64,000 nucleotides of DNA. Source: Candidatus Moraniibacteriota bacterium (GTDB lineage Bacteria > Patescibacteriota > Minisyncoccia > Moranbacterales > GCA-2747515). Position numbers and translations under genes: made by a program. The stretch lies in contig JBBQZC010000004.1 of assembly GCA_038208115.1 (NCBI GenBank), positions 10,530 through 74,529 of the forward strand, written 5' to 3'. Shown piece by piece: positions 10,928 through 57,028 of the stretch. Under the pieces are notes generated by a model, which was not told where the DNA came from, searched no databases, and saw only the letters and a list, made by a program, of their open reading frames with translations. Within the stretch, counting starts at the first letter, position 1; every line of letters starts with the position of its first letter.

Positions 10928-11677
10928 ATGTCTGCTAGAAAAATCCAAAAAAAATCCAATATTGTCGTCTATACAGCCATATTTGGAAATTATGATGTGC
11001 TAAACAAAGTGCCTCACAATATTAATTGTGATTTTGTCTGTTTTACTGATAATTCTCAATTAAAATCAAAAAAATTTGATATTAGACTTGTAGAGTCAAC
11101 ACATTCCGATTCCACACGAAATGCTCGCATGTATAAAGTTTTGCCACACAAATTTTTATCAGAATATAAATATTCAATATGGATTGACGCTTCTATGAAA
11201 TTGAAAAAAAACTTTGATCCAGAAAAAATGATTGAGAAATATTTAAAAAATGAAAAGTTTGCAATTTTTAAACATGATGAGAGAGATTGCGTTTATGATG
11301 AATTTGAAATATGCATTAAACATAAAAGAGATAACGTCGTCGTCATGCAAAAACAGAGAGATTTTTATAAAGAGTCAAACTATCCGAAGCACACTGGGTT
11401 AGTTTCTTCAGGATTTATAATTCGTGAGCACAATGATCCACATATCTCAAACTTTGATGACATGTGGTGGAAAGAAATTTGTAAATTTAGCAAAAGAGAT
11501 CAATTAAGTTTTAATTATGTTGCACACAAAATTAATTTACACTACACAAAAATAGAAGGTAATATTTTTAATAACAAAAATTTCTTTTATGTTGGTCATA
11601 ATGGATTTACACCAAGATACCGTGCTTTTATGAAACACGCACTGACATTTCTCAATAAAATCAATCCTCTAAAATAA
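10928..11677 (+). CDS. DUF616-like putative glycosyltransferase
   Basis: 'VVYTAIFGNYDVL...CFTDN' resembles the TOD1/DUF616 family. It is the only plus-strand gene in the cluster. Confidence 0.35.
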   Translation: MSARKIQKKSNIVVYTAIFGNYDVLNKVPHNINCDFVCFTDNSQLKSKKFDIRLVESTHSDSTRNARMYKVLPHKFLSEYKYSIWIDASMKLKKNFDPEKMIEKYLKNEKFAIFKHDERDCVYDEFEICIKHKRDNVVVMQKQRDFYKESNYPKHTGLVSSGFIIREHNDPHISNFDDMWWKEICKFSKRDQLSFNYVAHKINLHYTKIEGNIFNNKNFFYVGHNGFTPRYRAFMKHALTFLNKINPLK

Positions 11678-11679
11678 AG

Positions 11680-18335: not shown

Positions 18336-18737
18336 CTAACAACCTGTGTCGTTAAAAGTACATCCTACTTGCGTGCATATTGCTCTAGCGCATTCAGCTG
18401 CACCGAAACTTGCTGTATACTTAAAGTCACCACTTCCATCAGCTAAAGTCACGTCAGTTGCTCCTGTCCAGTTTCCAGATGGATCCAAAAGTGGCCATTG
18501 TGCCTCACTACCTGCACACATTGAGCTTCTCACCGTTGCTGATGAAGGGGTCACAAGGTTCAGATTATCATCCATACACAGAATTGCTCCTGGAACTGTT
18601 GATGAAATTGATGACTTCACAGATGCATCCTTAGCTTTTTGTCGTGCACTGTTCAACGATACCAAAACAATAGATGCTAAGATACCGATGATCGCGATCA
18701 CGATCAAAAGTTCAATTAATGTAAAACCTTTTTTCAT
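18336..18737 (-). CDS. pilA: type IV pilin (probable major pilin)
   Basis: '[25 protein letters not shown]' canonical class III signal with G-1. Strong SD 'GGAGGTG' 7 nt upstream. C-terminal Cys pairs. Confidence 0.85.
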
Positions 18738-18783
18738 TTACATTTCACCTCCATTCCATTTTTGTTTTTATCTTTACTCATAC

Positions 18784-18813
18784 AGTATATATCATAACTA
18801 CAAAAAATGTAAT
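18784..18813 (-). promoter_or_regulatory. candidate sigma-70-type promoter for pilA
   Basis: Minus strand TTACAT-N17-TATACT (plus 18807-18812 and 18784-18789). The same region contains direct repeats 'aactttcactttt'. Confidence 0.35.
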
Positions 18814-18913
18814 ATTATTGTCCACAGTTTATCCACTCTTGCCAAAACTGAAATCGTCTCACCTGAATTCTTCATTCTCCAATTTTTAACTTTTCACTTT
18901 CAACTTTCACTTT

Positions 18914-20122
18914 TTATAATTGTCCTGCGATATTATAAATCGGTAGCAAAACGGAAAACACCAACACACCGACACCCAGACCGAGAATTACGATCAAGAT
19001 TGGCTCAATGATTGATGACAAGTTTCGTGTGATTTGATCCACTTCTGACGTATAAAATCGTGCGATGTCTTCCAGGATATCACTCATACGCCCTGTTTCT
19101 TCTCCGATCTTAATCATGCTGGATACCATCGGAGGTATTTCTTCATGTTTGAAAAATTCTTTATTGATCTCACCACCCACTTTTACATCTTGCGCAGATT
19201 TCAAAATAATATTTTTATAGACGATATTATCCACGACATCAGCTACGACGATGAGCGCACGCACAATCGGGATACCACCCTTGAGAAGTACAGAGAGGTT
19301 TTCTGCAAAACGCGTAATGTAGACATAGCGAAATAATTGTCCGACAACGGGAATACGCAACTTGATACGATCCCATTCTCTACTCCCTTCTTCAGATCGC
19401 GCATAGTAGATCATCGATGCAATCACACCAACGATAACGACCAACACAGCCCACCAATACACCTGCATGAAATCCCCTATTTTGATCATCAAATTTGTAT
19501 ACCATGGGATCTCCACATTGAGATCTTTGATCACTTGTGTCAATTTCGGTAATATCCATGTCATCGTCAAAAATCCGATCACAGATGCTACACTGATCAC
19601 AAAAATCGGATACATCAGTGCTCCACGCACTTTACTTTTCAATTGATAATTTTGTTCTGCGCTTTCCGCGACAAAATCGATTGCTCCTTGCAAATTACCA
19701 GAAACTTCTCCAGCTCTGATCATGCTCACGGCAAGTGTCGTAAATATATTTTCATGTTTTGCAAAGCTCTCCGAGATCGACATACCATCCTCCACATCTG
19801 CAGCTACCTCAGTAACCACGATCCGCAACTGTGCATTTTCTGTCTGTGCATGGATCGTACGTAATGATGGTGCGATCGGAATCTTTGCACCCACAAGTGT
19901 CGATAACTGTCGATAAAAAAGCAAGAGATCTTTTTGCGTCACTGATGCTGTCAATCTTTCGATTGCAGACACTATCGATGTGCCCTGCTTGAATTCTTTT
20001 AATTCAATTGGGATGAGATCATTTTTTTGCAACAGCTTGGTCGCTGTTTCTTTGTCAATTGCCTCGATCTTTCCGCGCTTCACTTCGCCAGTTTGTGTCT
20101 GCGCCTTAAATTTAAATTGCAT
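18914..20122 (-). CDS. pilC: type IV pilus platform protein PilC/GspF
   Basis: 402 aa with two GspF repeats and three TM segments. Ends 'LLPIYNIAGQL'. Confidence 0.9.
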   Translation of the reverse strand: MQFKFKAQTQTGEVKRGKIEAIDKETATKLLQKNDLIPIELKEFKQGTSIVSAIERLTASVTQKDLLLFYRQLSTLVGAKIPIAPSLRTIHAQTENAQLRIVVTEVAADVEDGMSISESFAKHENIFTTLAVSMIRAGEVSGNLQGAIDFVAESAEQNYQLKSKVRGALMYPIFVISVASVIGFLTMTWILPKLTQVIKDLNVEIPWYTNLMIKIGDFMQVYWWAVLVVIVGVIASMIYYARSEEGSREWDRIKLRIPVVGQLFRYVYITRFAENLSVLLKGGIPIVRALIVVADVVDNIVYKNIILKSAQDVKVGGEINKEFFKHEEIPPMVSSMIKIGEETGRMSDILEDIARFYTSEVDQITRNLSSIIEPILIVILGLGVGVLVFSVLLPIYNIAGQL

Positions 20123-20259
20123 AAAAAATAGTTTATAAAGTTAAAAGTTTATAAAGTTTGAAATGTGTAAAATTCATATTTTTTCGTATTATAAGTATTA
20201 TAATTTTTTGTAATGATCTATGAAATGTGCACCTTTAACATTATGAACTGCTTTCCTCT

Positions 20260-21360
20260 CTATTCATCAATATGGATTTGTTCACCACGACCGACTAACA
20301 TACGGACATAATCACGATTTTTTGCATATGTCATAGCTTGCTCCAATGTGATATGACCCGCCTGCAATAATTCCGCGAGAGATTTGTCCAGTGAAATCAT
20401 ACCGTCTTTTGAACTGGTTTCAATGACTGTGTCAATCTGATATGTTTTATCTTCACGTATCAAGTTTTCGATTGCGTGATTTTTGATCATGATCTCCACC
20501 GCCGGAATACGACCGCCATTTGTATGCGGGATCAAACGTTGTGACATGACACCTAAAAGTACATTTGATAACTGTGAACGGATCTGATTTTGCTGATGTG
20601 ATGGAAATGTATCGACGATACGATCGATCGTTTGTGCTGAATCATTTGTATGCAATGTTGCAAAAATCAGATGGCCCGTCTCAGCTGCAGTGATCGCCGT
20701 ACCGATTGTCTCGAGATCGCGCATCTCACCGATGAGAATCACATTCGTATCTTCACGAAGTGCCGCACGCAAAGCGCCTGAAAATGTCTGTGAATCCTGT
20801 CCGATTTCACGCTGATTGATAATACAGAGATCTTGCTCATACATATATTCGATCGGATCCTCAATCGTGATAATATGGTTTTTCTTATTATGATTGATAT
20901 AATCCACCAACGCAGCGAGCGTCGTCGACTTTCCATGACCGACTGGTCCTGTGACGAGGAAGAGTCCCTGAGAGAAATTTGCAAACTCATATACGAGTTG
21001 TGGCACACCCAATTCATCGAGTTGTCGGATTTTGCTGTTGATCACACGCATAACGATTCCCACATACCCTCTTTGATAAAAGACATTTGTACGAAAACGG
21101 ACTTTATCTTCTAGGCTATATGAAAAATCGATCTCTCCGTTCTGTAGAAATTTTTCTTTATGATGTGCATTCATGAAATAATCTGCAAATGCCTTTGTGT
21201 CCTCTGGAAGCAAAGCTGCCTCCTGTTCCAATGGGATCAATTTCCCGTCAATACGCAAGGTCGGATGTCGACCGACGGCAAAATGCAAATCTGATGCATT
21301 TTGTTGTGCACCGAGTCGCAATAAATTTTTCAACCGCTGTTCTACATGTAATGAGCTCAT
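20260..21360 (-). CDS. pilT: twitching-motility/retraction ATPase PilT
   Basis: N-terminus 'LRLGAQQNASDLHF', Walker A 'GPVGHGKSTT' and His/Asp boxes. 366 aa, typical PilT size. Confidence 0.9.
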   Translation of the reverse strand: MSSLHVEQRLKNLLRLGAQQNASDLHFAVGRHPTLRIDGKLIPLEQEAALLPEDTKAFADYFMNAHHKEKFLQNGEIDFSYSLEDKVRFRTNVFYQRGYVGIVMRVINSKIRQLDELGVPQLVYEFANFSQGLFLVTGPVGHGKSTTLAALVDYINHNKKNHIITIEDPIEYMYEQDLCIINQREIGQDSQTFSGALRAALREDTNVILIGEMRDLETIGTAITAAETGHLIFATLHTNDSAQTIDRIVDTFPSHQQNQIRSQLSNVLLGVMSQRLIPHTNGGRIPAVEIMIKNHAIENLIREDKTYQIDTVIETSSKDGMISLDKSLAELLQAGHITLEQAMTYAKNRDYVRMLVGRGEQIHIDE

Positions 21361-21384
21361 AATTTTTTGTATTTATCAATTTTT

Positions 21385-21780
21385 CTATAGCATGTATTTT
21401 TGCACTTTTGCCAAAACTTCTGATGGTGTAAAATGTGATTTGATCAAAAAATCCTTTGCACCCAGTGCCATGCCACGATCCACATCTTCCTTTTGTGATA
21501 AATTCGTCAAAAGCACAACTGGAATTCCTTTCCACTCTTCACGATGACTGATGGCTTCCAAAACATCGAATCCATCCATGTATGGCATCACAATATCCAA
21601 GAGCATAATGTGTGGTCGCACACCTGCTTCCAATTTTTCGATCGCATCTCTACCATTATTTGCCAAAACGACATTGTATCCAGCATCTTTCAATTTCACT
21701 TCATAAATATCCCCGATAAATGCATCATCTTCAGCGATCATGATCGTCTTTTTTTCTTGCTGTAATTCTTCTTGTGTCAT
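21385..21780 (-). CDS. single-domain response regulator (CheY-like receiver, PilH-like)
   Basis: 'IMIAEDDAFIG...LLDIVMPYMDGFDVL...PVVLLTNL...K' contains the receiver-domain acid pocket, T/S and K. Confidence 0.85.
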   Translation of the reverse strand: MTQEELQQEKKTIMIAEDDAFIGDIYEVKLKDAGYNVVLANNGRDAIEKLEAGVRPHIMLLDIVMPYMDGFDVLEAISHREEWKGIPVVLLTNLSQKEDVDRGMALGAKDFLIKSHFTPSEVLAKVQKYML

Positions 21781-21798
21781 ATGCGTATTCTATAATTA

Positions 21799-23649
21799 TT
21801 ATTCTTCTTCCTTATGAATCTTTTTTTGCTTTTTGATATCCTCCAGCATTTGTTCTTCATCTGTGATCTCATCCAGCTTCCCTCCGATGCTCATATCACC
21901 TTCTGTCACACGTTCCAATTCTGATAGGGTTGTCAGTCCTAACAACATTTTCAACATACCATCCTGCTTAAGAGTGATGAATCCTTTTGTCCGCGCGAGC
22001 TTTTCGATTTTGACGATATTTCCATCTTCTTCGACAATCATATTTTGCATCTCATTATCAAGCTCAATTGCCTCATACAATGCTAATCGACCCTTCAATC
22101 CCAACTGACCACATTTTTCGCAACCTTTCCCATGATGTAATTTGATACCATCTGAGAGATCCACTCCATATTTTTTGATCTCTTCTTCTGGGACACTTGC
22201 AATTTCATTTTCTATCCGTTTAATGATATTTTCTGGCACCTGCATTTCCTCTTTGCAGTTTTCACAAATGCTACGCACGAGCCTCTGTGCAGCAATCACG
22301 CGCACGGAAGATGCAATAAGAAATGGCTCCACGCCGAGATCAATAAGTCGAGGTAGCGCACCGATCGCATTATTTGTATGTACTGTAGAAAAAACGAGAT
22401 GTCCAGTAAGCGCAGCATGCACAGCGAGTTCTGCTGTCTCACCATCGCGGATCTCCCCAACCATGATCACATTTGGATCTTGACGCAAGATACTACGAAG
22501 TCCACTCGCAAATGAATATCCGATTTCTGGTTTTACTTGTGATTGGTTGATCCCTGGCACAAAATATTCTACTGGATCTTCAAGTGTGATGATATTGCGC
22601 TCCTCACCATTCAATATTTTTAAAAAAGCATACAGCGTGGTCGATTTTCCAGATCCTGTCGGACCAGTCATGAGGATCATCCCAAACGGATCTCTGATTC
22701 TTTTGAGAAACATCTCGTGTTGCGTCCCCATCATACCCAGTTCCGTCAGATCAAATGTCTGACGATCTTTTTCCAAAACACGCATTACGATCTTTTCTCC
22801 TTCCACTACAGGTAAGCTCGATACACGAAAATCAACATCATCTCCCTTATCATTGATCCGGAAACGCCCATCCTGTGGCTTGCGCTTTTCATCGATCTTC
22901 AAATTTGAAAGAATTTTGATACGAGATATCACAGCCTTACCCACTTCCTCTGGAAATGTGAGAGATGCATGCAAAACACCATCCTGACGAAAGCGTACAC
23001 GATATGTTTTATCGATTGGCTCGATATGAATATCTGACGCTTTGCCATCCAATGCATGTTTGATAATCACGTGTACCAATTTTGCGACAGGCGCATCTTG
23101 AATACTATCTCGATCGCCCGCATTTGATTGATCAGATTTTACTTCACCTTCAATTTCAAATGATTGCACGACATCCTCAACAGCTTTTTCTGCGCTACCA
23201 TACAAGGCAAAGAATTTTTCTAAAAGAATATCTGAAATGAGATACACAGCGATATTCATACGATCCTTTTGCGCAATAAACCGTAAAACGTTGAGTGCAT
23301 CAACACTTTGCACATCCACCATCGCAACGTGTAGTGTATTTGATGCAACATCCTTATCAAATATCACCATGTGATTTTTACGCGCAATGTCTTCTGCAAG
23401 TGATTGAATCGACTCTCGACTAGATCGTGAGGGAACACTTAACAAAGCCTCCACACCCAGCTCTTTTGCGCGAGCGACGATTGCATCATCGGAATCATTT
23501 TCGTCTGTCTTTGCCTGCGGTGTATCTTGCGGTAGATCTTGCGGTGCATTTTCAGTCACGTCAGATTGTGTAATCTGCACGTCATTATCACCATCTTCTT
23601 CTATCACAATTTTTTCTTCTATTGTGTTATTATTATCTTCTTGCATCAT
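21799..23649 (-). CDS. pilB: type IV pilus assembly ATPase PilB/GspE
   Basis: Walker A 'GPTGSGKSTTLYA', C-terminal Zn tetracysteine 'CENCKEE...CEKCGQ'. Acidic N-terminal extension and a GSPII_E N-terminal domain. Confidence 0.9.
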   Translation of the reverse strand: MMQEDNNNTIEEKIVIEEDGDNDVQITQSDVTENAPQDLPQDTPQAKTDENDSDDAIVARAKELGVEALLSVPSRSSRESIQSLAEDIARKNHMVIFDKDVASNTLHVAMVDVQSVDALNVLRFIAQKDRMNIAVYLISDILLEKFFALYGSAEKAVEDVVQSFEIEGEVKSDQSNAGDRDSIQDAPVAKLVHVIIKHALDGKASDIHIEPIDKTYRVRFRQDGVLHASLTFPEEVGKAVISRIKILSNLKIDEKRKPQDGRFRINDKGDDVDFRVSSLPVVEGEKIVMRVLEKDRQTFDLTELGMMGTQHEMFLKRIRDPFGMILMTGPTGSGKSTTLYAFLKILNGEERNIITLEDPVEYFVPGINQSQVKPEIGYSFASGLRSILRQDPNVIMVGEIRDGETAELAVHAALTGHLVFSTVHTNNAIGALPRLIDLGVEPFLIASSVRVIAAQRLVRSICENCKEEMQVPENIIKRIENEIASVPEEEIKKYGVDLSDGIKLHHGKGCEKCGQLGLKGRLALYEAIELDNEMQNMIVEEDGNIVKIEKLARTKGFITLKQDGMLKMLLGLTTLSELERVTEGDMSIGGKLDEITDEEQMLEDIKKQKKIHKEEE

Positions 23650-23655
23650 TTTGTT

Positions 23656-24369
23656 TTATGGTAAAAATGGATTTACACGCTGTTTTGGCTCTGTGACCAA
23701 TTTATCCGTCTCCGCGCTTGAATTCATCACCGTATCGATTAGATCATAATCTACAACCTGATTAAAATACGTGGGATCAATTTTTTCTTCTCCAGGAATA
23801 TATCCATACGCAAACGTGATCACACCACTCAATAATTGTTCTTGAGGAACAGCATCTTCCTCTCCTTCTTTTGCATCTTTCTTTTCAACTTTTGTAAGCT
23901 CAAATGTCTTAAATGCATACAGTCTCTTCAAATGAAACAATTCATTCGAAAATTTCTTCACACTCTCATAGGTTCCACTGACAAGCATCTTTCCCTCGAT
24001 CAAATATGACGCTTGATCAGTTGCTGCACTTGATTTCACATCCTGACGACCCTCAGCAAATCCCATAGAAAAAAGACTAACACCTGTTTTTTCTGCAAGC
24101 TGTGATACATCACTGAGCAATATTTCCTCACGCTGATCATTAGGTACAAAGTCATTCACAAAGTCCACTTCTGTTGAATGACTTTTGACACTTTGCACGA
24201 ACGACTTAACACTGTTCAATTTGCTATTTGCAGCAGCAAGAGATTCTTCTTTTTGTATTATTAGTTGTTTTTCTGCTGATACTGATTTCCAAATTGGCAC
24301 AACTTGTCCAATAACAAAATACATGACAAGTAGCAGTATTACAGGAAACATGAGTATTCTTATGATCAT
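23656..24369 (-). CDS. PilO-like type IV pilus assembly protein
   Basis: Single N-terminal TM, a coiled-coil segment and then a soluble domain. Position between the PilN-like gene and pilB. Confidence 0.45.
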   Translation of the reverse strand: MIIRILMFPVILLLVMYFVIGQVVPIWKSVSAEKQLIIQKEESLAAANSKLNSVKSFVQSVKSHSTEVDFVNDFVPNDQREEILLSDVSQLAEKTGVSLFSMGFAEGRQDVKSSAATDQASYLIEGKMLVSGTYESVKKFSNELFHLKRLYAFKTFELTKVEKKDAKEGEEDAVPQEQLLSGVITFAYGYIPGEEKIDPTYFNQVVDYDLIDTVMNSSAETDKLVTEPKQRVNPFLP

Positions 24370-24408
24370 ATTTTTATTTTATTTTATAAAAACCACTTAT
24401 TAATATAA

Positions 24409-25206
24409 TTACTGATTCACTTTTACTGAAGTATTTTCGGACTGCGTCGTATCAACTTGCACACTCGAACCGTCAGATTGTGCATCGACTTGCACACGGG
24501 ATCCATCCGATTGCACATCGACCCCATTTGAGCCTGATGTATCACTTTGCGTCTGATTCATACCTGCATCTCCATTTTTTTCAAATGGCATCTTTTTATA
24601 ACCATTTACATCCATCGTCAATGTAAATATGATCCGACCAGACTCGTCGCGATCTGTAGTCCCTACTTCGACATTGTCAAAAAAAGTACTCTTCTTGAAC
24701 ATTGCAATTTGCTGTGCCATTACATCAAATGAATCTGCATCTGCAGAAATCGTGATATTGCCTCTTCCTGTAATGACAGCACTCGCTGTCCCTACTGTCT
24801 TTTTTTCCTTAGCACCGGAATTATGTTGAAATGATTTCAATACGACACGATTTCCAGAATTATCAGATTCTTTCAATATCATAATTTTTTCAATCTCTTG
24901 CAATATATCATTTGTATCATAGCCACGATATATCTCTTTTTCCATCGCATCCGCACGCACAGCAAAATCAGACACATCATCTGACATTGCGTTCTGTATT
25001 TGATCATTTACATCAAGTGTTTCTTGTTCCAAATCTGCAGAATGAGCCTTGAGAGAGCTATCCCACATTTTAAGTGCACCCCATACAATAAGCACTACAA
25101 CGAGAGTGCCAAAAGCGACTAATAAACCACGTGAAACCATTTTTTTCCGTGGAGCACCATCGAAATTGTCATCAGATGTGCTTTTAAAGCCTGTACCTGA
25201 AACCAT
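24409..25206 (-). CDS. PilN-like type IV pilus assembly protein with C-terminal repeat tail
   Basis: Short cytoplasmic N-terminus, one TM, a coiled coil and a periplasmic domain. The last ~45 aa are tandem 'VQVDxQSDGS' repeats. Confidence 0.45.
   Translation of the reverse strand: MVSGTGFKSTSDDNFDGAPRKKMVSRGLLVAFGTLVVVLIVWGALKMWDSSLKAHSADLEQETLDVNDQIQNAMSDDVSDFAVRADAMEKEIYRGYDTNDILQEIEKIMILKESDNSGNRVVLKSFQHNSGAKEKKTVGTASAVITGRGNITISADADSFDVMAQQIAMFKKSTFFDNVEVGTTDRDESGRIIFTLTMDVNGYKKMPFEKNGDAGMNQTQSDTSGSNGVDVQSDGSRVQVDAQSDGSSVQVDTTQSENTSVKVNQ
24420..24545. repeat. about 27-bp tandem direct repeats (3-4 copies) inside the 3' end of the PilN-like gene
   Basis: Repeated 'cgtcagattgtgcatcgacttgcacac'-like units visible at 24424-24505. 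Confidence 0.6.
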
Positions 25207-25240
25207 AATCTTTTATTTTAATGATTTAATTTATATATAT

Positions 25241-26287
25241 TTATTTATCTTTTTGATCTTCGATCTCACGAAGTGCTAACCCAATCGCAACAGAAAATGA
25301 TAATCCCAAATTCTTGATATCACCAGATGCTTTTTCATCATACACAATATGACTGAGCGGATTACCGATCGTCACTTTCAATCCCGTTAACTGCGTCAGG
25401 TATTCTGGTAAACCGACAAGACGTGCGCTCCCCCCACACAACACCAAAGACTCTACGACATCGCTTTTTTGAGTATCCAAAACACGCTTCACCTCATTTG
25501 CCACAAAATTCAATGAAGGAAAACCCACCTTGGTCGGACCAGTAAAAAAATCTTCACCACCCTCTTTGAGTGCTACAGCTCTTTCTCGTGAAATATTTAA
25601 TCCTTGCATAATCGCATTTGTCATGTCTGCACCTCCGATGTCAACACTACGACTGACATGTACAATGCCATTTTCAATAAGCACAATATTTGTGGTCTTG
25701 GCGCCAATATCAACTAAAATAAACCGTCCCTTTGTACTACCGATAACCGATCGTGCCAGAGAAAATGATTCTAATTCCAAAGAATCGATCGCAATATTCA
25801 CATCCTTGAAAAGTCCGTCGTAATATTGCACTTCACTTTTTGGTGCAGCGACTAACAGAACTTTCATTGTTGGTTTTTCTTTATCTTTTTCATCTTCACT
25901 CAAGATCTCCCAGCTGACATTCACTTCATCAAGAGAGGCTGGTATGTATCGCCGAGATTCAAATTTGATCGCAGCAGCGACGTCTTTTTCGCTCATGCGA
26001 GGAAAATCAACGATCAACACGAGACCATTAAAACTCGGGATTGCCACAATCGCCTTACGTGCCGTTGGTTTCATTTGTACGAAAAGTTCCTTTAAAGCAT
26101 CGCTTAAACGTTTTGCATAATCGTTATCATATGCATCAGGTACTTCTTTGATATTGGTGACATTAACCCATCCATAATTCGTGAGATATGGTTTTCCCTT
26201 GGACAACTTTAATTCAACAGCTTTGATCGATTGCGTCCCAAAATCAACGCCAAGATAATATTCGGAATGTGATGAAAACAATGACAT
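25241..26287 (-). CDS. pilM: type IV pilus assembly ATPase-fold protein PilM
   Basis: Actin/FtsA-like. 'YLGVDFGTQSIKAVEL' phosphate-1 motif and 'LVDIGAKTTN'. Confidence 0.8.
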   Translation of the reverse strand: MSLFSSHSEYYLGVDFGTQSIKAVELKLSKGKPYLTNYGWVNVTNIKEVPDAYDNDYAKRLSDALKELFVQMKPTARKAIVAIPSFNGLVLIVDFPRMSEKDVAAAIKFESRRYIPASLDEVNVSWEILSEDEKDKEKPTMKVLLVAAPKSEVQYYDGLFKDVNIAIDSLELESFSLARSVIGSTKGRFILVDIGAKTTNIVLIENGIVHVSRSVDIGGADMTNAIMQGLNISRERAVALKEGGEDFFTGPTKVGFPSLNFVANEVKRVLDTQKSDVVESLVLCGGSARLVGLPEYLTQLTGLKVTIGNPLSHIVYDEKASGDIKNLGLSFSVAIGLALREIEDQKDK

Positions 26288-28618: not shown

Positions 28619-30955
28619 TTATTCTTCAAAGCTTTCATCTGCTGTTTCTTGCGAAATCAATACACGCCGTGGCTTTTGTCCATCTGGAGCGCCAATTACA
28701 CCTCTTTCCTCCAATTCATCCATAAGTCGCGCAGCACGAGAATATCCTACACGCAGTCGTCTTTGAATATACGATGTGGAAGCCTTTCCAGCTTCGATCA
28801 CAAGAGCCTTGGCTTCCTCATACACAGGATCTTCACCACCAACACTTTTTGCCACACTATCAAAATCCACCATTGTCCCTGCATGAGAACTGGGATGTGT
28901 TACATCATTGCCGCTGAAATCCTCACTGATATCGTACGCACCTATGATCTCTGCTTGTCGTTTGATAAATTCAACAACCTGCTTTACTTCTTCTTCTTCA
29001 ACATATGCACTCTGCAATCGATGGGGATTGGAACTTTGTGGCCCGAGAAACAACATATCACCATTACCCACTAGCTTCTCCGCACCTGGGACATCAAGGA
29101 TCGTACGAGAGTCAATATTTGTAGCAACGCGAAGTGCGATGCGCGTTGGGAGGTTTGCCTTGATCAATCCTGTGATCACCTCTACGCTTGGACGTTGTGT
29201 AGAAATAATGAGATGAATACCAATTGCACGAGACATTTGCGCGATACGTACAATCACACCTTCAACTTCTTTGCCGTGTGATGACATCAAATCTGATAAT
29301 TCATCAATGACGATTACAATTGCTGGGAGATTTTCTATTGGCTCATGGCACTTCTTTCCAGTATCTGGATCGATAAATATATGTTGTTCACCTGCATCAC
29401 GTTTTTTATTATATGACTCAATATCACGTGATCCTGTTTCTTGAAGCAATTTATATCGCCGTTCCATTTCTGACACAGACCATTTGAGCGCATTGATCAC
29501 TTTACCATTATCTACGATCACGTCAGAAAGCAAATGTGGTATACCACTATATAATGTCAGTTCCACACGCTTTGGATCCACTAAAATCAACTTCAGATCT
29601 TCAGGAGAATTTTTATATAAAAGAGAAAGCAGAATACAGTTGATCGTAACAGATTTTCCTGATCCCGTTGTCCCTGCCACAAGCAAATGTGGCATTTTTG
29701 CTAAATTCTCGAAAACATAATCACCATTTACATCTTCACCAAGAGCCAATAATAATTTCTTTTCTGATTTACTAAATGCATCTGTCATCACAAGATCTCG
29801 CATTCGCACAGTTGCTGGTGTTTTATTAGGGACTTCAATACCCACCAAAGATTTTCCAGGGATTGGAGCTTCGATACGGATCGGATGTGCAGCTAATGCA
29901 AGCGCCAAATCTGCGTTTAGTGTCGTGATACGAGACAATTTCACACCACTTTGTGGACGAAAACTGTATTGCGTCACTGTCGGTCCAGTGACCACAGCCT
30001 CTAGTTCCATCATGATACCAAAATTTGCAAATGTTTCTTGGATCCGCAACGCATCACGCTTTACATCACCACCCTTAGCTTTACCAGATCCACTTTTTAA
30101 TAATTTTAATGGTGGTAATTCCCACTCAACATCAGCACGCTGTTGATTCTTTTTATGATGCAATACGCTACGTTCTACAATTTCTTCCACTCTTTGTTCA
30201 TTTTTTTGATATTGCTCAAGCACATTGTCCTGTGGCACTTCAATCTCCAATTCTTGTTCATCATCATAATCATCGTAATCCTCATGTGCATCAGAAATTT
30301 TCACTTGTTGATTCACTGTCTCTTGTTCACCATCTTCATCATCACTAACGTCTGCATCAGATAGATCTTTTTTCCTTCGTACAAAAAATGACAATGGTGC
30401 ATCAAACCATGCAAAACGGTCACTCATACCAACCAGTGACATATTAAATGCAACAATAAGTCCCGTCAAAATAACTGCACTCAAAATAATTGTCCCCGCA
30501 ATTTTTCCGGTAAATGTCACTAAAACGCCTGCAAGAGAATATCCTAAATATCCACCGCCCACGCCTTCTTTCGCCATAAGCGCATATTGATCCGCAGAAA
30601 ATGGTAATAAATGTAATAATGCCAAAAAACCCCAAAAAGCAATAGCAATCCCAACAATTTTACTTATATAAAAATGTGCATCAACTTTTTTCCGCAATAA
30701 AATATATCCTGCAAAAGCAAAAACAAATGGCGCAATATATTTACCCCATCCAAATATCATGCCAACTCCCGTATTCATCTTGATCCCAGCAGGACCTGCA
30801 GCATTAAAAAAACCTAATACAAATATCGCAGCAATCACAAACAAAAATATCGCAGCAATCGAACGTTTTGCATGACCACTTAAATGAAGTGCGACAAAAT
30901 CTTGACCATCACCCTCAGCAGCATCTTCTTCTTTCTTATTTTTTTTTGCAGACAT
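28619..30955 (-). CDS. ftsK: DNA translocase FtsK/SpoIIIE
   Basis: N-terminal four TM segments, acidic linker, Walker A 'GTTGSGKSVTINC' and a C-terminal gamma winged-helix ('STSYIQRRLRVGYSRAARLMDELE'). Confidence 0.9.
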   Translation of the reverse strand: MSAKKNKKEEDAAEGDGQDFVALHLSGHAKRSIAAIFLFVIAAIFVLGFFNAAGPAGIKMNTGVGMIFGWGKYIAPFVFAFAGYILLRKKVDAHFYISKIVGIAIAFWGFLALLHLLPFSADQYALMAKEGVGGGYLGYSLAGVLVTFTGKIAGTIILSAVILTGLIVAFNMSLVGMSDRFAWFDAPLSFFVRRKKDLSDADVSDDEDGEQETVNQQVKISDAHEDYDDYDDEQELEIEVPQDNVLEQYQKNEQRVEEIVERSVLHHKKNQQRADVEWELPPLKLLKSGSGKAKGGDVKRDALRIQETFANFGIMMELEAVVTGPTVTQYSFRPQSGVKLSRITTLNADLALALAAHPIRIEAPIPGKSLVGIEVPNKTPATVRMRDLVMTDAFSKSEKKLLLALGEDVNGDYVFENLAKMPHLLVAGTTGSGKSVTINCILLSLLYKNSPEDLKLILVDPKRVELTLYSGIPHLLSDVIVDNGKVINALKWSVSEMERRYKLLQETGSRDIESYNKKRDAGEQHIFIDPDTGKKCHEPIENLPAIVIVIDELSDLMSSHGKEVEGVIVRIAQMSRAIGIHLIISTQRPSVEVITGLIKANLPTRIALRVATNIDSRTILDVPGAEKLVGNGDMLFLGPQSSNPHRLQSAYVEEEEVKQVVEFIKRQAEIIGAYDISEDFSGNDVTHPSSHAGTMVDFDSVAKSVGGEDPVYEEAKALVIEAGKASTSYIQRRLRVGYSRAARLMDELEERGVIGAPDGQKPRRVLISQETADESFEE

Positions 30956-39791: not shown

Positions 39792-42700
39792 TTATGCTAT
39801 CAGTGATGTGTTTTTACGTTCAAGTTTACCCCATCCGACGAATATGCCTTTGATTGCGACAAATACGGTTTTCATTGCAACATAATACATCAATTGACGA
39901 TAAAAAAATCGTTGAAAAATAATCCAAATGAGTAAAGACCAGTCTTCACGTTCTCGTTCAAGTGTAAATGCAATGATCGATGAAAAAATGTCAATCATCA
40001 AAAACAATATGTAATATACAAATATATAGCGAAATGTGTACATAAGAGAATAATCCATCTGATGTATATGCTGTTGCCACAGTGCCCAGCTCACTGAAAT
40101 GATCAACGCAAGATCAACAATTGGTGCAATAATCTGAAAAAATAATTGAAATACAAAAATGTTTGGCAAAGCAAAAAATCCCAATGCACCATATCGTGGA
40201 CGGAAAAAAACCGCTTTATGTTTCCATGCTGTTTGCAGTGTGCCATACATCCATCGAAACCGCTGTTTGACGAAGCCAGCAATGGTATCAGGCGCTTCCG
40301 TATATGCAATCGCTTCATCATCATACACAACTTTATATCCATTTTTGATGATTGAAAATGTAAGATCAGCATCTTCTGCTAAAGTATCACTCGAAAACCC
40401 TCCTACAGACACAACCACCTCTCGACGCCATGCGCCAACCGCACCAGGCACAACTGAAATCGCATTGATAATATCGACAGCACGTCTCTCTAAATTTTGA
40501 CTTGTGATGTATTCCAATGCTTGTAATTTTGTTAATATATTTACTTTATTTCCCACTTTGGTATTTCCCGCGACCGCGCCCACACGTGAGTCAGCTAAAT
40601 CACGAATGAGCATTTTAATTGTATCTTTTGTAAAAAGTGTATCCGCATCGAGCGCTACAAAAAATTCAGAAGATGATTGTGTAATCCCAAAATTCAATGC
40701 GCTTGCTTTTCCTCCATTCTCTTTGGTGAATATACTCACTTTATCATTTGCACAATATTTGTGATTAAGTAAATAATATGTATTGTCAGTAGAACCATCA
40801 TCAACAATAATAATGCGAAAATTTCCATAATCTGAGTCAAGGAGAGAGTCTATGGTTCGTATTATCACATCCTCTTCATTCCATGCAGGAACGATTACAT
40901 CAACAGATGGTTCAAATTCCGTTTGATATACACATGTCTTGCCATAACGACATCTGCCAGATTGTATAAGTGCTAGAACTATGATGAATAGTAGTCTCCC
41001 TATCCCCAAAAATATGCCAACTGTAAAAATGAAATAAAAAATATTCATTAAAATATATGTCAACGAGAATGTTATATCGTTGATTCGCATAGCCAATTGA
41101 TCTTGTGAAACAACAGGTGGCATAATTGTATCGTGTGACACACCGACTAATTCTGAAATTGTCACAAACTCATAGCCTTTTTGTTTGAGTGTATCAATAA
41201 TTATTGGAAGTGCATCCACAGTTTGATCGCGATTTCCTCCAGAGTCATGTAATAACACAATATTACCCTCTCCACTTTCAGCTCCATTTACAACATTCGA
41301 CACAATTTCTTCAGTACCGGGTTGTGCCCAATCCGTCGGATCTATATGCATACCGACCGTATAATATCCTTGATTATTCGCAAATAGTAATGATCCAATC
41401 TGTTCTAAAGTTTCAGGCTCGACATCTTCTGCATATGGCGGTCGAAACAAAATTGTTTGTCTTCCGATCATTCCTTCCAACATTTTTTGAAATCCATTGA
41501 GTTCAAGAAAAAATTGTTTTTTGGAAATATTATTAATATTTGGATGTGTAAATGTATGGCTACCAATCTCATGCCCTTCCGCATTGATCCGCTTTATAAT
41601 ACGAGGGTATTTATCCGCACTCAATCCGATTGTAAAAAAAGTTGCATGAATATTCTTTTGGTTTAAGATATCTAAAATCAGATCAGTATATTTTGCATCA
41701 GGACCATCGTCAAAAGTAAGTGCTATTTTTTTACTGTCCTCACCACCAAATCTCTCAATTCTATACGATGACGGATATTTCACAATTGACGCATCCGTGA
41801 TAACTCCATTGACATCATCGTATATCACATTTCGCACACCATCTATCGGCGTATGTTTGATTTTAAGCACTTCTCCCACACCATCATAAGTTACCACATC
41901 CCCATGAGGAATTACTGTGATCATATCAGCAACAAATTTGTCGAGATGATCTCGATACGCCATCACATGCCACAAAGAAGAGTCTTCTCCACCCATGCGC
42001 CACAACGCATATCCCAGAGGTCGATATTGTCTCACTGCAGCGATTTGATCAAAAACAGTCACCGCATCTAAAAACCACACATGGTGGATAATATTTTTTT
42101 CATCGCGATACGAAAATGTTTCGTTTTGACTTTGATGATCCATTTGCAAAGTTACACGTGCATCTATAGCAGTCATTAGTGCCTCTTGTGTAGTGATGCT
42201 CATTCCGTTCATAGTATCTTCTATCCAATCATAACCGTAGTTACCATACGCGATCACGATTTTTTGTGGTGGAACTTGTGAGAATCGTTGTGTAATACCC
42301 GCGACAAACCAATCGCGTGATGCGATTGGTCCAGAAGCAGTAGCCTGAACCGTATGCTCATCATACGCCATCAAAACCAAAAAATCGACATATTGGGCCA
42401 ATATGCGTGCATCAAATGAATCATCAATTAGCGGTATGCTTTGAGAAACTTCCAGTCCTTCCTGTGAAAAAACTGCATATAGCTCTTTCATATATAAAAT
42501 AAGATTTGCTTGACTCGTATCTGGGATAGATTCATAATCGATGTTTACACCATCAAACCCATTTGTCTTTACGTAATCCAAAATACTTTGAATATTATGA
42601 CTCCGCGCAGTCTGATCTTGAAGCATATTTACCACCATTTCACTATCCCAATTTTGCGTGGTTGAATTGTAATTATTGATAAGTGGCGCAATTTTGAGTG

Positions 42701-43172
42701 GACTTCCATTACTGCGTATAAAATCCAATGCTTTTTTTTGTGCTTCTTCATCGTCAAGTATTATCGATCCATCTGCTCCTGATAAATGTAACCACTCAGG
42801 CATCAATTCATCGATCGATCGAATATTATTTTGCAAAGAGTTAAAACTCTCATCATCCCAATTTACATAAAATGCGATTGATTGCGAACGATACGTTCCA
42901 ATAGAATCCACAGATTGTATAGGTGTCTTTTGTGATCCAATCTGTACATCTGATGCAACCTGGATTGGCGTCACATTTGAATTTTCTGATATTGGTTGCA
43001 ATTTCTGTGGCAAAACAATCGGTGGTTCCCCCAGTAATTGTGTCTCATGGTAAACAGTTTTCACTGTAAAGCCAAAAAAACCGACTACTATAAGAATAAT
43101 TATTATAGTCGGCCACTTAACCCACAACCATCTTTTCTTAGTTGCATCATAAAATATCGGTGTTTGCGTCAT
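39792..43172 (-). CDS. tri-domain exopolysaccharide enzyme: GH18-like domain + CE4 (NodB) polysaccharide deacetylase + processive GT2 synthase (PgaB/PgaC- or IcaA/IcaB-like fusion)
   Basis: N-terminal TM, then 'FDGVNIDYES' (GH18 DxDxE-like). 'IALTFDDGPDAKYT...HEIGSHTFTHP' is the CE4 domain. 'DVIVPAWNEEDVI...IIVDDGSTDNT', 'LDADT' and 'QRFRWMYG' (QxxRW) mark the GT2 domain, which is followed by C-terminal TM helices. Confidence 0.7.
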   Translation of the reverse strand: MTQTPIFYDATKKRWLWVKWPTIIIILIVVGFFGFTVKTVYHETQLLGEPPIVLPQKLQPISENSNVTPIQVASDVQIGSQKTPIQSVDSIGTYRSQSIAFYVNWDDESFNSLQNNIRSIDELMPEWLHLSGADGSIILDDEEAQKKALDFIRSNGSPLKIAPLINNYNSTTQNWDSEMVVNMLQDQTARSHNIQSILDYVKTNGFDGVNIDYESIPDTSQANLILYMKELYAVFSQEGLEVSQSIPLIDDSFDARILAQYVDFLVLMAYDEHTVQATASGPIASRDWFVAGITQRFSQVPPQKIVIAYGNYGYDWIEDTMNGMSITTQEALMTAIDARVTLQMDHQSQNETFSYRDEKNIIHHVWFLDAVTVFDQIAAVRQYRPLGYALWRMGGEDSSLWHVMAYRDHLDKFVADMITVIPHGDVVTYDGVGEVLKIKHTPIDGVRNVIYDDVNGVITDASIVKYPSSYRIERFGGEDSKKIALTFDDGPDAKYTDLILDILNQKNIHATFFTIGLSADKYPRIIKRINAEGHEIGSHTFTHPNINNISKKQFFLELNGFQKMLEGMIGRQTILFRPPYAEDVEPETLEQIGSLLFANNQGYYTVGMHIDPTDWAQPGTEEIVSNVVNGAESGEGNIVLLHDSGGNRDQTVDALPIIIDTLKQKGYEFVTISELVGVSHDTIMPPVVSQDQLAMRINDITFSLTYILMNIFYFIFTVGIFLGIGRLLFIIVLALIQSGRCRYGKTCVYQTEFEPSVDVIVPAWNEEDVIIRTIDSLLDSDYGNFRIIIVDDGSTDNTYYLLNHKYCANDKVSIFTKENGGKASALNFGITQSSSEFFVALDADTLFTKDTIKMLIRDLADSRVGAVAGNTKVGNKVNILTKLQALEYITSQNLERRAVDIINAISVVPGAVGAWRREVVVSVGGFSSDTLAEDADLTFSIIKNGYKVVYDDEAIAYTEAPDTIAGFVKQRFRWMYGTLQTAWKHKAVFFRPRYGALGFFALPNIFVFQLFFQIIAPIVDLALIISVSWALWQQHIHQMDYSLMYTFRYIFVYYILFLMIDIFSSIIAFTLEREREDWSLLIWIIFQRFFYRQLMYYVAMKTVFVAIKGIFVGWGKLERKNTSLIA

Positions 43173-53949: not shown

Positions 53950-53977
53950 AAAAAACACACATTAAATGTGTTTTTTT
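53950..53977 (-). terminator. Rho-independent terminator downstream of the Cys-rich membrane protein gene
   Basis: aaaaaacacacatt-aaatgtgttttttt hairpin. Confidence 0.45.
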
Positions 53978-54047
53978 GCATTCGCGGAGAGGGTGGGACG
54001 ATGTTGGAACGTTTTTAGAAGAGAATAAAGAATTCTATTACATTACA

Positions 54048-55343
54048 TTATAAAGTTTCATTACATTTTTCTGAAAAAACACATCCGTTTTTAGTACATC
54101 TCAAATTTTCCATTCCACTACATTCAGGATAATTTTTACAGTCCAAAGTATAACTCCATTCACCATCATTATAATCAACAATCCATTTTGCATCACTTTG
54201 AACTTTTCCGCAAGAATCTCCGCCTATAAAAGGCCAACTCATCGGACTATATCCCGGACAAATAAACCCCAATCCATTTTCTGTTCCCTTTATGATACCT
54301 CCATTCCCGTCACACTCTTTAGTATACTGTAATGCATTTTTAACTGATTTTTTTATTGTGGATACCTGAGAAAATCTTTGTGACCTAACATGAGTCGTAT
54401 CGCCATTGGTAACTTCTTCTTGAAGTATCTCTTGATATCTTTCATATTCGCTTATTTCCCTATTTTGCAATTCAGAATTTTGCACATCACTGTGACTAAT
54501 TTTTTCAGCATCCCTTCTTTTTAGTTCATCTTCACAATCACTCCTTTTTTTGCCCCATGGCATTTTATGACACCTGCTCTGATTAACCTCCTCATAACAC
54601 TCTACTCTTATGTTCTCATTTTTTACTAGGTCGTCACAAATACTCTTATTCACCTTTTCTTCCGCAAAATCAACATAACAATATTCTCTATCAGTTTCAT
54701 TGAGAATACCATCACATTGAGTCGCATTAACGTAATTTTCCTCTTCATAATCAAAAATAACACTCTCATAGCACATTTTTTTATCATACTGTGATTTTAT
54801 TTTTGCACATATATTTTCATCTCTATATCTGTAAGCTTTATTATCGTAACAAGCATCCTTCTCATCATTAGCAAAATAATCGCAGTTATCCAATCTAATA
54901 GCTATAGATCCCATAATAATGAAATTCAATATGAATAAAATGAAAAAGGTACCAGCAATAATTTTATACCTGCTAATATTGTATTTAGATTTAACAGCTC
55001 TTCCTATATAAGAACCAGCGATAACACTACCAATAATGCCAGGAAATACTAAAATTAAAAAGAAAGGTATTAGCATTACTACTAAAGATGCGGCAAGACC
55101 AATAGAGATAATAATACTACGTATATATTTTTCAGTTGCCAGTGCAGACAAAAAGCCAAGTTGTAAAAAGATTACATAGAAATATGACTGGTATCTATTA
55201 ATACCCATTACGCCATAAAAATGATTAAATATAGCAATACTTGCTCCATAAGAAAAAAGGATCAGAAGTATTAAATAAATATCTAGATTTCTTATTAAAT
55301 GGCGTCCTGCCGCATTATTAAAATACTGCATATTACTTTTCAT
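54048..55343 (-). CDS. membrane-anchored cysteine-rich repeat protein (hypothetical)
   Basis: N-terminal 4-5 TM helices. External domain has four ~30-aa repeats with a 'CY...IC' spacing, plus a C-terminal Cys-rich module ('CDGNGG...CPGY...CGK...C'). Confidence 0.45.
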   Translation of the reverse strand: MKSNMQYFNNAAGRHLIRNLDIYLILLILFSYGASIAIFNHFYGVMGINRYQSYFYVIFLQLGFLSALATEKYIRSIIISIGLAASLVVMLIPFFLILVFPGIIGSVIAGSYIGRAVKSKYNISRYKIIAGTFFILFILNFIIMGSIAIRLDNCDYFANDEKDACYDNKAYRYRDENICAKIKSQYDKKMCYESVIFDYEEENYVNATQCDGILNETDREYCYVDFAEEKVNKSICDDLVKNENIRVECYEEVNQSRCHKMPWGKKRSDCEDELKRRDAEKISHSDVQNSELQNREISEYERYQEILQEEVTNGDTTHVRSQRFSQVSTIKKSVKNALQYTKECDGNGGIIKGTENGLGFICPGYSPMSWPFIGGDSCGKVQSDAKWIVDYNDGEWSYTLDCKNYPECSGMENLRCTKNGCVFSEKCNETL

Positions 55344-55468
55344 TTTTATATAACTATAAATAAATTATATCATAAATTTTTACACAAAAAATCATATATG
55401 GGTTGTGTGATCTTGTTGGCGGTGTTTCTTGGACGAAGTTGGAACTTTTTTGATGAATTTTGATATTA

Positions 55469-56514
55469 TTACTTAGCTACTAATTTTTCATGTACCAACT
55501 GAATTTGTTCTACCATATCAGCCACCACAGCATCTTCCATATTATTTACCAGTGGCACTAATGACATAAATAGTACATCGCCTTCCACTACAAGATCAAT
55601 ACCTAATTGTAATGCGATTTCTTTGCATTTCAATTGAAAATTGCTGGAAATTTTCCAACTGTCTCCATCAATTTCTTGAACTAAAAGCCAAAATGGTGTG
55701 TTTGCATTTTTGCCCATAGATCCATTTTCATACAAACTGCAAATCCTATATTTTCTATGCCAAAATATCTATGATAACCACCATATCTCTGAGCTGTTCT
55801 ATTCAGCATATGCATATCACCCCCTAATTGATTATTCAATTCATCCACCACATTATCCACAATATCATAATAAGAGTGAATTTGTTTTGGGATATCTTGT
55901 GATAAATCTTTATCCATAATTGGTTTAAATGAATTATTATCTATTATATCGCAGAAGCCTATTATTTGATTAACGTCAGAAATCAAAAATGGATCGTTCT
56001 CATATGTCATTTTTGATTTGATTTGATTGAGAACTTTATTCCAACTTTTAAACAAAATGTATTGATTAGTCGATACAATTCTTATTTTTCTTTTTTTTGC
56101 ATCAACTTCAATACCTGAATATTCTTTTTGTATTTTTTGTAAAACTTCATCAAAAACAGCTCTTATTCTTAAGGTTGGCACTAAAAAAATCAGAACTGTA
56201 TCATTATCCAATCTCTCCAAATATCCACTTGGTTGATTGTGTGTCAAAGATGCCCAAAACTTAGCTTCAATTAAAACTACTTCTTTACCATCCTCATCTA
56301 CCCCACTTATATCAGGTCGTTCTAAATTATCACCAGAACTTTGATTCTTATATAGCAATTTAGGAAAAGTAAGATCCGTATTTGAACTAATAATTTCATT
56401 AATCACATTTCCAGATTCAATTGAATTATTTAAAATATAAGCCAAACCCTCAGATGCGATATCCTCTTGAGAACCTTTGATTTTATTATAAAATAATCCT
56501 AATAATGATTGCAT
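55469..56514 (-). pseudogene. PD-(D/E)xK-like nuclease-fold protein, apparently split by a frameshift (55681-56514 and 55469-55735 overlap)
   Basis: 'GVDEDGKEVVLIEAKFW' fits D...ExK. The 277-aa and 88-aa ORFs overlap by 55 nt in different frames. Confidence 0.3.
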
Positions 56515-56520
56515 GTCTAT

Positions 56521-56859
56521 CTACTTTTTATCTGGTAAAATATTGTGTAATTTCTTGTATGCATATGTATTTTCTTCAGTACACCGATTAATAATATCAC
56601 CCATATGCCAATATGTTAATCCATCATATTTGAAATATTTTTGTTTTGTATCATAAAAAAAATCATCATATCCGTAAACATCAATATGATTTGCAAGGTC
56701 TAAAAATAATTCATTATCAACATTCTCCTGGACAATGTATTCATGAGGCCATGTATCTGCATAGGTTTTGGCAAATATCCATTCCTGATCTTCAATGAAT
56801 TCCTTTATTTTTTTTGATAATTCTTTTTTCATTTCATCGTATATTAATATAATCATCAT
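56521..56859 (-). CDS. hypothetical protein
   Basis: 112-aa intact ORF adjacent to tRNA-Ser. Confidence 0.4.
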   Translation of the reverse strand: MMIILIYDEMKKELSKKIKEFIEDQEWIFAKTYADTWPHEYIVQENVDNELFLDLANHIDVYGYDDFFYDTKQKYFKYDGLTYWHMGDIINRCTEENTYAYKKLHNILPDKK

Positions 56860-56904
56860 ACCACAAAAAGTTCTAGCGTCCCTACCTCCCTATTCAAAAA
56901 AGCC

Positions 56905-56929
56905 CATTAAAATGGGCTTAATTTCTTCG
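56905..56929 (-). terminator. Rho-independent terminator downstream of tRNA-Ser
   Basis: agcccatt-aaa-atgggctt hairpin followed on the minus strand by T6. Confidence 0.5.
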
Positions 56930-56939
56930 CGGAGAGGGA

Positions 56940-57028
56940 GGGATTCGAACCCTCGGACCGGTTTGACCCAGTCAACTGATTTCGAGTCAGTCCCATTCGA
57001 CCTCTCTGGCACCTCTCCATTTATTCAA
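56940..57028 (-). tRNA. tRNA-Ser (anticodon CGA)
   Basis: Reverse complement gives GGAGAGG acceptor stem, anticodon stem ACTGA/TCAGT with loop CTCGAAA, long variable arm, T-arm GAGGG-TTCGAAT-CCCTC and discriminator G. CCA is not encoded. Confidence 0.85.

Follow-up and report, generated by a model that had tools for sequence, protein, structure and literature searches.

A stretch of 64,000 nucleotides from a Candidatus Moraniibacteriota bacterium (contig JBBQZC010000004.1, positions 10,530 to 74,529; this whole stretch is referred to as the window) carries on its minus strand, at 54048-55343, an open reading frame (ORF) of 431 amino acids followed by a stop codon. This gene and its product, together referred to as the target, are described here. 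A membrane-anchored cysteine-rich repeat protein had been placed at precisely these coordinates by a sequence-only reading of the window, in agreement with the ORF list, while the public gene call begins at M5 and yields 427 amino acids. An identical protein (P0001) is known from public collections, where it is encoded on an NCBI contig of 83 kb and in the Logan assembly of SRR19962012. The target consists of an N-terminal membrane anchor, a row of cysteine-pair helical hairpins and a C-terminal domain with the fold of a type IV pilin head, and its gene is a mosaic that is bracketed by two copies of a 34-nt junction motif. A promoter-like TATAAT and a downstream hairpin accompany the gene. The parts of the target are as follows:

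54885-55343, minus strand: N-terminal membrane anchor, residues 1-153, with about five transmembrane (TM) helices, predicted N-in/C-out (hydropathy, AlphaFold2 helices and positive-inside pattern)
54489-54884, minus strand: five cysteine-pair helical-hairpin repeats, residues 154-285
54390-54488, minus strand: charged linker, residues 286-318, partly disordered at 288-293 and with a helix at 299-312 (AlphaFold2 confidence dip and secondary structure)
54051-54389, minus strand: C-terminal eight-cysteine domain with the type IV pilin head fold, residues 319-431
54463, minus strand: mosaic breakpoint at about codon 294 (blastn)

Searches in Pfam, NCBIfam, PADLOC and PHROGs gave no significant match for the target, and no housekeeping membrane family was found in these curated libraries. 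The sequences of the PDB were not matched by three ectodomain profiles, Foldseek found no match below E 0.2 in the PDB or BFVD, and scans of viral contigs were also negative. A toxin-like module, one of the roles that had been suggested, finds no support: no toxin or enzyme family is matched in the four curated libraries, and the C-terminus is a pilin-type head.

Hydropathy and the AlphaFold helices place TM segments at about residues 22-42, 53-69, 76-98, 100-114 and 128-150, which is consistent with the four to five N-terminal TM helices proposed earlier. Clusters of positive charge, read from the sequence, lie at the N-terminus and at residues 70-75 and 115-127, and the target therefore probably spans the membrane five times with its N-terminus inside and its C-terminus outside. 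All 18 cysteines are located beyond residue 153, and the description as a polytopic membrane protein with a cysteine-rich extracytoplasmic part is supported. The anchor is limited to a small family (P0003-P0006, P0009 and P0070). It was also tested as a DUF5671 domain and for similarity to the anchors of P0008 and P0102; no resemblance was observed.

The extracytoplasmic part starts with five C-x(10-13)-C units (C154/165, C179/191, C210/222, C236/249 and C258/270), which close with CY in four cases and with CE in the last one. Repeats with a fixed spacing of two cysteines had been recognized from the sequence and are real, but there are five units and not four of about 30 residues. The repetition is also seen in a half-versus-half local score of 51, compared with 30.2 +/- 5.8 in shuffled sequences (7 of 2000 shuffles reach 51). 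Residues 154-285 are modelled as short-helix/long-helix hairpins, forming a solenoid of tandem antiparallel helix pairs. No Sel1 (PF08238) or tetratricopeptide repeat (TPR) profile matches the target, even at E <= 10. One disulfide per helical hairpin would fit the uniform spacing of 11-13 residues between the paired cysteines, an arrangement found in the Helicobacter cysteine-rich proteins HcpB and HcpC, which have Sel1-like repeats.

In an exhaustive HMMER search of cluster representatives at 50% identity, 950 representatives match the ectodomain profile, mostly through the repeat. These matches form two independent sets, the majority with the repeat only and about 20 with the C-terminal module only. 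Repeat-only proteins often contain 4-11 matched stretches (2-11 among hundreds of proteins), in units of about 26-30 and commonly about 28 amino acids, and the consensus of this uncurated family is lC(D/E)kI.d...kD.CY..vA....D.s. Ten canonical members of the family have no significant Pfam domain over the repeat. The target repeats align in register with hundreds of these proteins; in an alignment with 18 of them, C16, C30, C42, C61, C73, Y74 and C87 are invariant. On the strength of this profile and alignment match, the target repeat is classed as a divergent member of a large and very common helical-hairpin repeat family that is uncurated in Pfam. The repeat had been described as resembling no recognized domain; this holds for the curated families, but the search of the representatives gives it a family, and it is not an orphan.

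The C-terminal module, which had been noted as CDGNGG...CPGY...CGK...C...C, is present and contains eight cysteines. All eight are conserved in a 17-sequence family alignment, except for the last one in the tandem-head protein P0016. The ectodomain was modelled from a 37-sequence alignment with a predicted local distance difference test (pLDDT) score of 88.5. In this model, an alpha1-C-like helix (residues 319-346) is packed on two beta-hairpins that make up a four-stranded sheet, and this corresponds to the pilin head fold, in which the alpha1-C helix is packed on an antiparallel sheet of four to five strands. When the hidden Markov model (HMM) of the module was searched against all 679 ORFs of the window, one other protein was matched, at 18339-18737 (E 8.6e-9). 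This is the type IV pilin of the window, located directly downstream of PilC, PilT, PilB, PilO and PilM. Alignment of this pilin with the module family by hhalign gave a probability of 95.8% and an E of 7e-9 over 100 columns, and covers the alpha1-C helix and four of the six pilin cysteines. The target head and this pilin are about 19% identical. Because of this HMM and hhalign homology, the C-terminal module of the target is assigned as a type IV pilin head domain.

Both window pilins, at 18339-18737 and 4655-5371, have the N-terminus of a prepilin, with a leader that ends in G and is followed by F/M-T-L-I/L-E and a hydrophobic alpha1-N helix of ~20 residues. The target lacks both the leader (G|FTLIE) and this helix. 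N_methyl (PF07963) does not match the target, and neither this domain nor a G[FY]T[LI][IL]E motif was found in the target or in any of the 32 head-family proteins. Cleavage by prepilin peptidase and incorporation into a filament would therefore not be expected, and the head would be displayed as a single tethered copy, neither processed nor polymerised. The 32 head-family proteins combine different anchors with a C-terminal head, except for three short or tandem-head proteins without a predicted anchor; also in the proteins matched by the C-terminal module alone, the module is always C-terminal. It is preceded by a single TM helix and coiled coil, a lipobox, DKNYY, DUF3352, DUF5671 or another multi-TM anchor, or it occurs in tandem. 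One small member of the family comes from a Candidatus Moraniibacteriota metagenome-assembled genome. The window contains a complete type IV pilus cluster at 18339-26287 on the minus strand, and the protein at 4655-5371 is a second pilin-like protein of 238 amino acids. The cluster is made up of:

25241-26287, minus strand: PilM
minus strand, listed between PilM and PilO: unassigned 265-aa ORF
23656-24369, minus strand: PilO
21799-23649, minus strand: PilB
20260-21360, minus strand: PilT
18914-20122, minus strand: PilC
18339-18737, minus strand: type IV pilin, 133 aa, 6 Cys, closest bona fide pilin relative of the target head (N_methyl PF07963 E 1.2e-8, PHROG 'pilin')

Full-length homologues of the target are rare in the searched collections. 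A word-indexed search with the target returned only the target itself, one full-length homologue (P0003, 36% identity) and P0002, a TM and DKNYY protein that has only the last ~135 residues in common with the target, at 79% identity; word-indexed searches with the head and repeat profiles returned 13 and 4 proteins, respectively. Four proteins (P0003-P0006) have the complete TM, repeat and head layout, at 30-36% identity to the target. Across these and the target, 17 of the 18 cysteines are invariant, and the remaining one, C249, is lost in P0003. This conservation, in four homologues that share the layout, argues for selection on the whole design. A genome scan identified one full-length homologue in a named assembly, 31% identical and located on CAIMIV010000012.1 (L004). 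Two genes downstream of it lies a 218-aa DKNYY-like protein (L004 12686-13342), which echoes the DKNYY/head fusions P0002 and P0010. No close relative is present in the collections, where each of the window proteins checked clusters alone or nearly alone at 90% identity; the full-length family thus seems rare in part because sampling is sparse.

The target gene is composed of parts with different histories. From 54463 to 53951, the window matches L003 884-1396, a locus from another metagenome that carries the DKNYY-domain gene P0002, with 83.7% identity over 515 nt (blastn). This block covers the linker, the head, the 3' untranslated region (UTR), the junction motif and a hairpin, and upstream of 54463 the DNA of the target and of L003 is unrelated by blastn. 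This breakpoint, at about codon 294, is located within the linker between the domains, which is disordered and modelled with low confidence, and both domains of the target therefore stay whole. On L003, the sequence of the 20-nt direct repeat of the target also occurs on either side of the P0002 gene. Head identities are 82% between the window and P0002, 70% between P0005 and P0010, and 52% between the window and P0005, and the heads thus group by lineage and not by architecture. Since the heads group in this way, the sequences indicate repeated exchange or homogenisation.

Within the window, the 20-nt direct repeat flanks the target alone, at 55431-55450 and 53996-54015, and it is part of a longer motif with a consensus of about 34 nt, (C)AAAAAGGTTCCAACATCGTCCCA-N-A-NNN-CCAGCAA. 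Scanning with a profile of 111 metagenome copies gives only two sites in the window, both bracketing the target, with the next best hit at E 0.15:

55420-55453, minus strand: site B, upstream copy, AAAAAGTTCCAACTTCGTCC..., with the exact 20-nt repeat (nhmmer E 5e-5)
53980-54018, minus strand: site C, downstream copy, 32 nt past the stop codon, its 3' half being the 3' end of tRNA-Ser (nhmmer E 1.5e-8; three-way alignment)

The motif has been found in at least 120 metagenome stretches (scan with the 20-nt pattern; loci L005-L124), compared with a chance estimate of about 10 at most. Its conservation extends beyond the 20-nt search pattern, with CA at +20/21 in 90% of the copies and CCAGC at +27-31 in about 75%. 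The motif is found between genes, mostly 0-100 nt past a stop codon, on contigs of 27-55% GC. In AT-rich contigs, a terminator hairpin and an extended -10 box typically follow, and the genes next to the motif are unrelated small accessory genes. There are also arrays of junction modules about 1 kb apart, and near-identical contigs differ by whole genes exactly after the junction. The motif may be a recombination site, an expression signal or both.

Neither Rfam, nor known elements, nor a literature search on its sequence accounted for the motif. Several known classes were considered and rejected: a pure tRNA-derived attachment (att) site, as the motif is widespread away from tRNAs; an integron attC, as it has no inverted cores; a sigma-54 promoter, as the GG-GC spacing is wrong; a dif/Xer site, as there is no dyad; a coding sequence, as it is the nucleotides that are conserved and the motif often borders on a stop codon; and a known RNA family, as Rfam gave no match. 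A promoter of the extracytoplasmic function (ECF) type was considered and dropped. The motif, from +9 to +31, resembles 23S rRNA around E. coli GGCCCAGACAGCCAGGAUGUUGG (rRNA sequence verified; H1, NZ_AP018488.1 231338-231407). The commonest variant, CCAACATC-GT-CCCAGACAGCCAG, contains 13 nt identical to 23S rRNA GGCCCAGACAGCCAG and also holds the reverse complement of the adjacent 23S GATGTTGG. As the motif conserves no more than 9 of these 13 positions, the resemblance may be a coincidence.

The target is also part of a stretch bounded by copies of a tRNA 3' end. A tRNA-Ser(cga) gene is located 1.6 kb upstream on the same strand, and repeats of its 3' end bound 2.9 kb that contain the target and three small ORFs:

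56929-57018, minus strand: tRNA-Ser (cga) (ARAGORN; Rfam tRNA match, 56 bits)
56926-56943, minus strand: proximal 18-nt copy, formed by the tRNA-Ser 3' end and trailer
53981-53998, minus strand: distal direct repeat of the tRNA-Ser 3' end, 17/18 nt, putative distal end of the islet (two matches, with 0.03 expected by chance)
53951-53978, minus strand: hairpin and T-run after site C, resembling the tRNA-proximal terminator at 56900-56919 (repeat D1, 71% over 48 nt; sequence read directly)
55469-56859, minus strand: the other islet genes, of 112 aa (56521-56859), 277 aa with a weak PD-(D/E)XK match (55681-56514) and an overlapping ORF of 88 aa (55469-55735)

Of the two hairpins, the terminator scan scored the tRNA-proximal one only and not that at 53951-53978. 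The 112-aa, 277-aa and 88-aa ORFs form the tRNA-proximal half of the islet and have no PADLOC or PHROG match; the latter two overlap by 55 nt in different frames and may be one frameshifted gene (55469-56514). Three of the four islet ORFs, including the target, are among the six genes of lowest GC in the window; the GC z-score of the target is -1.5, and its neighbours have -2.1 and -2.8. The stretch has two of the features of a tRNA island, insertion at a tRNA 3' end and a distal direct repeat. No integrase is encoded by the islet ORFs, and no recombinase family was found among the called genes within 10 kb. We take the arrangement to be similar to that of integrase-less elements flanked by att sites, such as those of the cis-mobilizable (CIME) type.

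Taken together, we consider it probable, with some reserve, that the target is a membrane protein that displays a cysteine-braced helical stalk tipped by a pilin-type head, that it serves in surface binding and that its gene is a recombinant cassette. In this explanation, about five TM helices would anchor the protein in the cytoplasmic membrane, and the five cysteine-pair hairpins would form a short TPR/Sel1-like solenoid that acts as a stalk or a binding scaffold. A flexible charged linker would join the stalk to the last ~110 residues, a pilin head in which an amphipathic alpha1-C helix lies on a small antiparallel sheet, held by up to four disulfides. Fixed at the cell surface, this head would act as a binding module for adhesion or ligand capture, through the kind of surface with which pilins make contacts. 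The gene is a recombinant cassette: its linker, head and 3' UTR form a block in common with a differently built DKNYY-head gene, and its ends are junction motifs of the type that separate exchangeable cassettes elsewhere. The architecture, the fold of the head and its homology to pilin heads, the mosaic structure and the flanking repeats are well supported, while the topology, the disulfides, the failure to polymerise and the binding role are inferred. Surface binding is favoured because there is no catalytic signature and both modules are classic interaction scaffolds, and also because the head is combined with many extracytoplasmic partners and the gene lies in variable DNA. The possibility of an adhesin, raised before, is plausible.

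Several points weigh against this explanation. With about 19% identity to the window pilin, the head need not bind the targets of the pilus, and the formation of disulfides outside the cell of an anaerobe is assumed. In addition, small head proteins are found beside FtsK in a conserved core context in Moraniibacteriota, which points to an envelope or division role and not to adhesion. As for horizontal delivery in a tRNA-Ser islet, which the sequence-only reading had proposed, it is supported in part, by the 17/18 tRNA repeat, the low GC, the bracketing junction motifs and the mosaic with a gene from another sample, but the islet has no integrase and the homologue on CAIMIV010000012.1 is not at a tRNA-Ser.

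An envelope or division role is the main rival to surface binding. The target would then be an envelope or divisome scaffold in which the head, as a periplasm-side interaction domain, docks on the cell-wall or division machinery in the way of the C-termini of FtsB, FtsL and DivIC, with the repeat as a spacer. In two Moraniibacteriota assemblies, a 187-aa protein with a TM helix, a coiled coil and a pilin head is encoded immediately upstream of FtsK, between DUF2157/GDYXXLXY genes and a conserved block of FtsK, RodZ-like and RecA genes (L125 4189-4752, GCA_049286985.1; L126 7001-7564, GCA_049305975.1). This context suggests a core function in the envelope or in division for some of the head family, and one small head protein carries the JGI name FtsB, although that name is an automatic annotation. 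The target itself is not near FtsK (28619-30955) but sits in a low-GC variable stretch between cassette junctions, and its head is also fused to DKNYY, DUF3352 and DUF5671 and swapped between architectures, as is typical of accessory surface proteins. For the target, we therefore regard a scaffold role as unlikely. It is also rather improbable that the head docks on the type IV pilus or pilin pool of its own cell, in regulation, bundling or retraction sensing, or serves as a decoy for phages or partners that recognize pilins. The head is homologous to the pilin head of the same genome, the window holds a complete pilus cluster, and the lineage grouping of the heads (82% and 70% within, 52% between) would be expected if they co-evolve with one lineage-specific partner; however, the identity to the actual pilin is low, the target lies 30 kb from the cluster, and recent recombination explains the lineage pattern equally well.

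Two further explanations are given very little weight. The 18 cysteines are very dense and nearly all strictly conserved, and could in principle coordinate zinc or iron or shuttle thiol-disulfide equivalents, but the target has no CxxC or CxxH motifs, the spacing of 11-13 residues corresponds to one bridge per hairpin, and four cysteines of the head align with those of the pilin. In pilins, such cysteines form disulfides. As no redox or metal family is matched in Pfam or NCBIfam either, a metal-binding or redox protein is highly improbable. The target is also hardly likely to be a non-functional product of recombination, a recent chimera from cassette shuffling that is not under selection. An abrupt homology breakpoint within the gene would suit such an origin, as would the location in an islet that lacks an integrase and in which a neighbour (55469-56514) may be frameshifted. 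However, the reading frame is intact, four distant homologues have the same architecture and almost all of the cysteines, the breakpoint lies exactly within the disordered linker, and the TATAAT and the downstream hairpin are in place. A more far-reaching version of the cassette explanation can also be put forward, to which we give only a small chance. The target would be cargo of an undescribed cassette system, in which recombination at the junctions and in the linker would bring different anchors and stalks (five TM helices with the cysteine repeat, or a TM helix with DKNYY) together with a pilin-derived head that is specific to the lineage. Without polymerising, this head would mimic a pilin and act alongside the type IV pilus, or in its place, in partner recognition.

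Ultrasmall episymbiotic bacteria rely on surface contact with their hosts, and to our knowledge, no contact organelle other than type IV pili has been studied well in these organisms. Tethered pilin heads outside filaments would give them a second way to present pilin-type surfaces. With a head that is found on no fewer than five kinds of anchor or stalk and is swapped between them, these proteins are candidates for studies of host recognition or envelope interaction. The pilin fold and the helical cysteine repeats are of known kinds; what appears to be new, judging from the literature searched, is the combination of a leaderless pilin head with polytopic and other anchors and its exchange between architectures. 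Literature searches on cysteine-rich or pilin-like proteins of the candidate phyla radiation (CPR) and on DKNYY returned nothing relevant, and the pilins of the CPR 'Pam' pilus, described in a preprint, have an Ig fold and are unrelated to the target. Both cysteine-rich modules occur commonly in metagenomes, while the curated libraries searched lack them; defining them would annotate about 950 dark-matter protein clusters (representatives at 50% identity), and the 34-nt motif, if it is a recombination or expression signal, could explain the shuffling of accessory genes in reduced genomes.

Other features of the window were also observed. A second low-GC stretch lies at 8000-12000 (0.27-0.30); with its polysaccharide flippase-like gene (8870-10159) and the genes around it, this stretch probably represents a variable locus for surface glycans. 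A protein of 1126 amino acids (39792-43172) unites glycoside hydrolase family 18 (GH18), polysaccharide deacetylase and a chitin-synthase-like family-2 glycosyltransferase in one chain. The minus strand carries almost all of the long ORFs, and the cumulative GC skew declines monotonically, so that the window lies within one replichore with strongly co-oriented genes.

Compared with known systems, the target repeats share the tandem helix-hairpin solenoid layout of Sel1-like and TPR proteins, but without a match to either profile. With type IV pilins and pseudopilins, such as PilA of P. aeruginosa, PilV and PilX of N. meningitidis and EpsH of V. cholerae, the target shares the head fold, in which a long amphipathic helix lies on an antiparallel sheet, and the C-terminal cysteines. 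Unlike these proteins, it has no class III signal peptide and no hydrophobic alpha1-N, and its head is at the C-terminus of a 431-aa polytopic protein and not in the N-terminal position. The target head also has eight cysteines where the window pilin has six, and it is encoded about 30 kb away from the pilus cluster.

The region of the target resembles tRNA genomic islets in its site at the tRNA-Ser 3' end, the 17/18 far repeat, an internal repeat that points to two tandem units, and the low GC. It differs in that no integrase or excisionase is present and that the repeat flanking the gene occurs in many unrelated genomes away from tRNAs. The junctions recall integron arrays, with single promoter-proximal ORFs of unrelated accessory function, a recurring junction just after the stop codon and strain differences of whole cassettes. 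No IntI was seen, however, and the motif is conserved over 34 nt at the nucleotide level, whereas attC sites are structured and variable in sequence, with RYYYAAC/GTTRRRY inverted cores that the motif lacks; in contrast to integron cassettes, each motif junction carries its own terminator and promoter.

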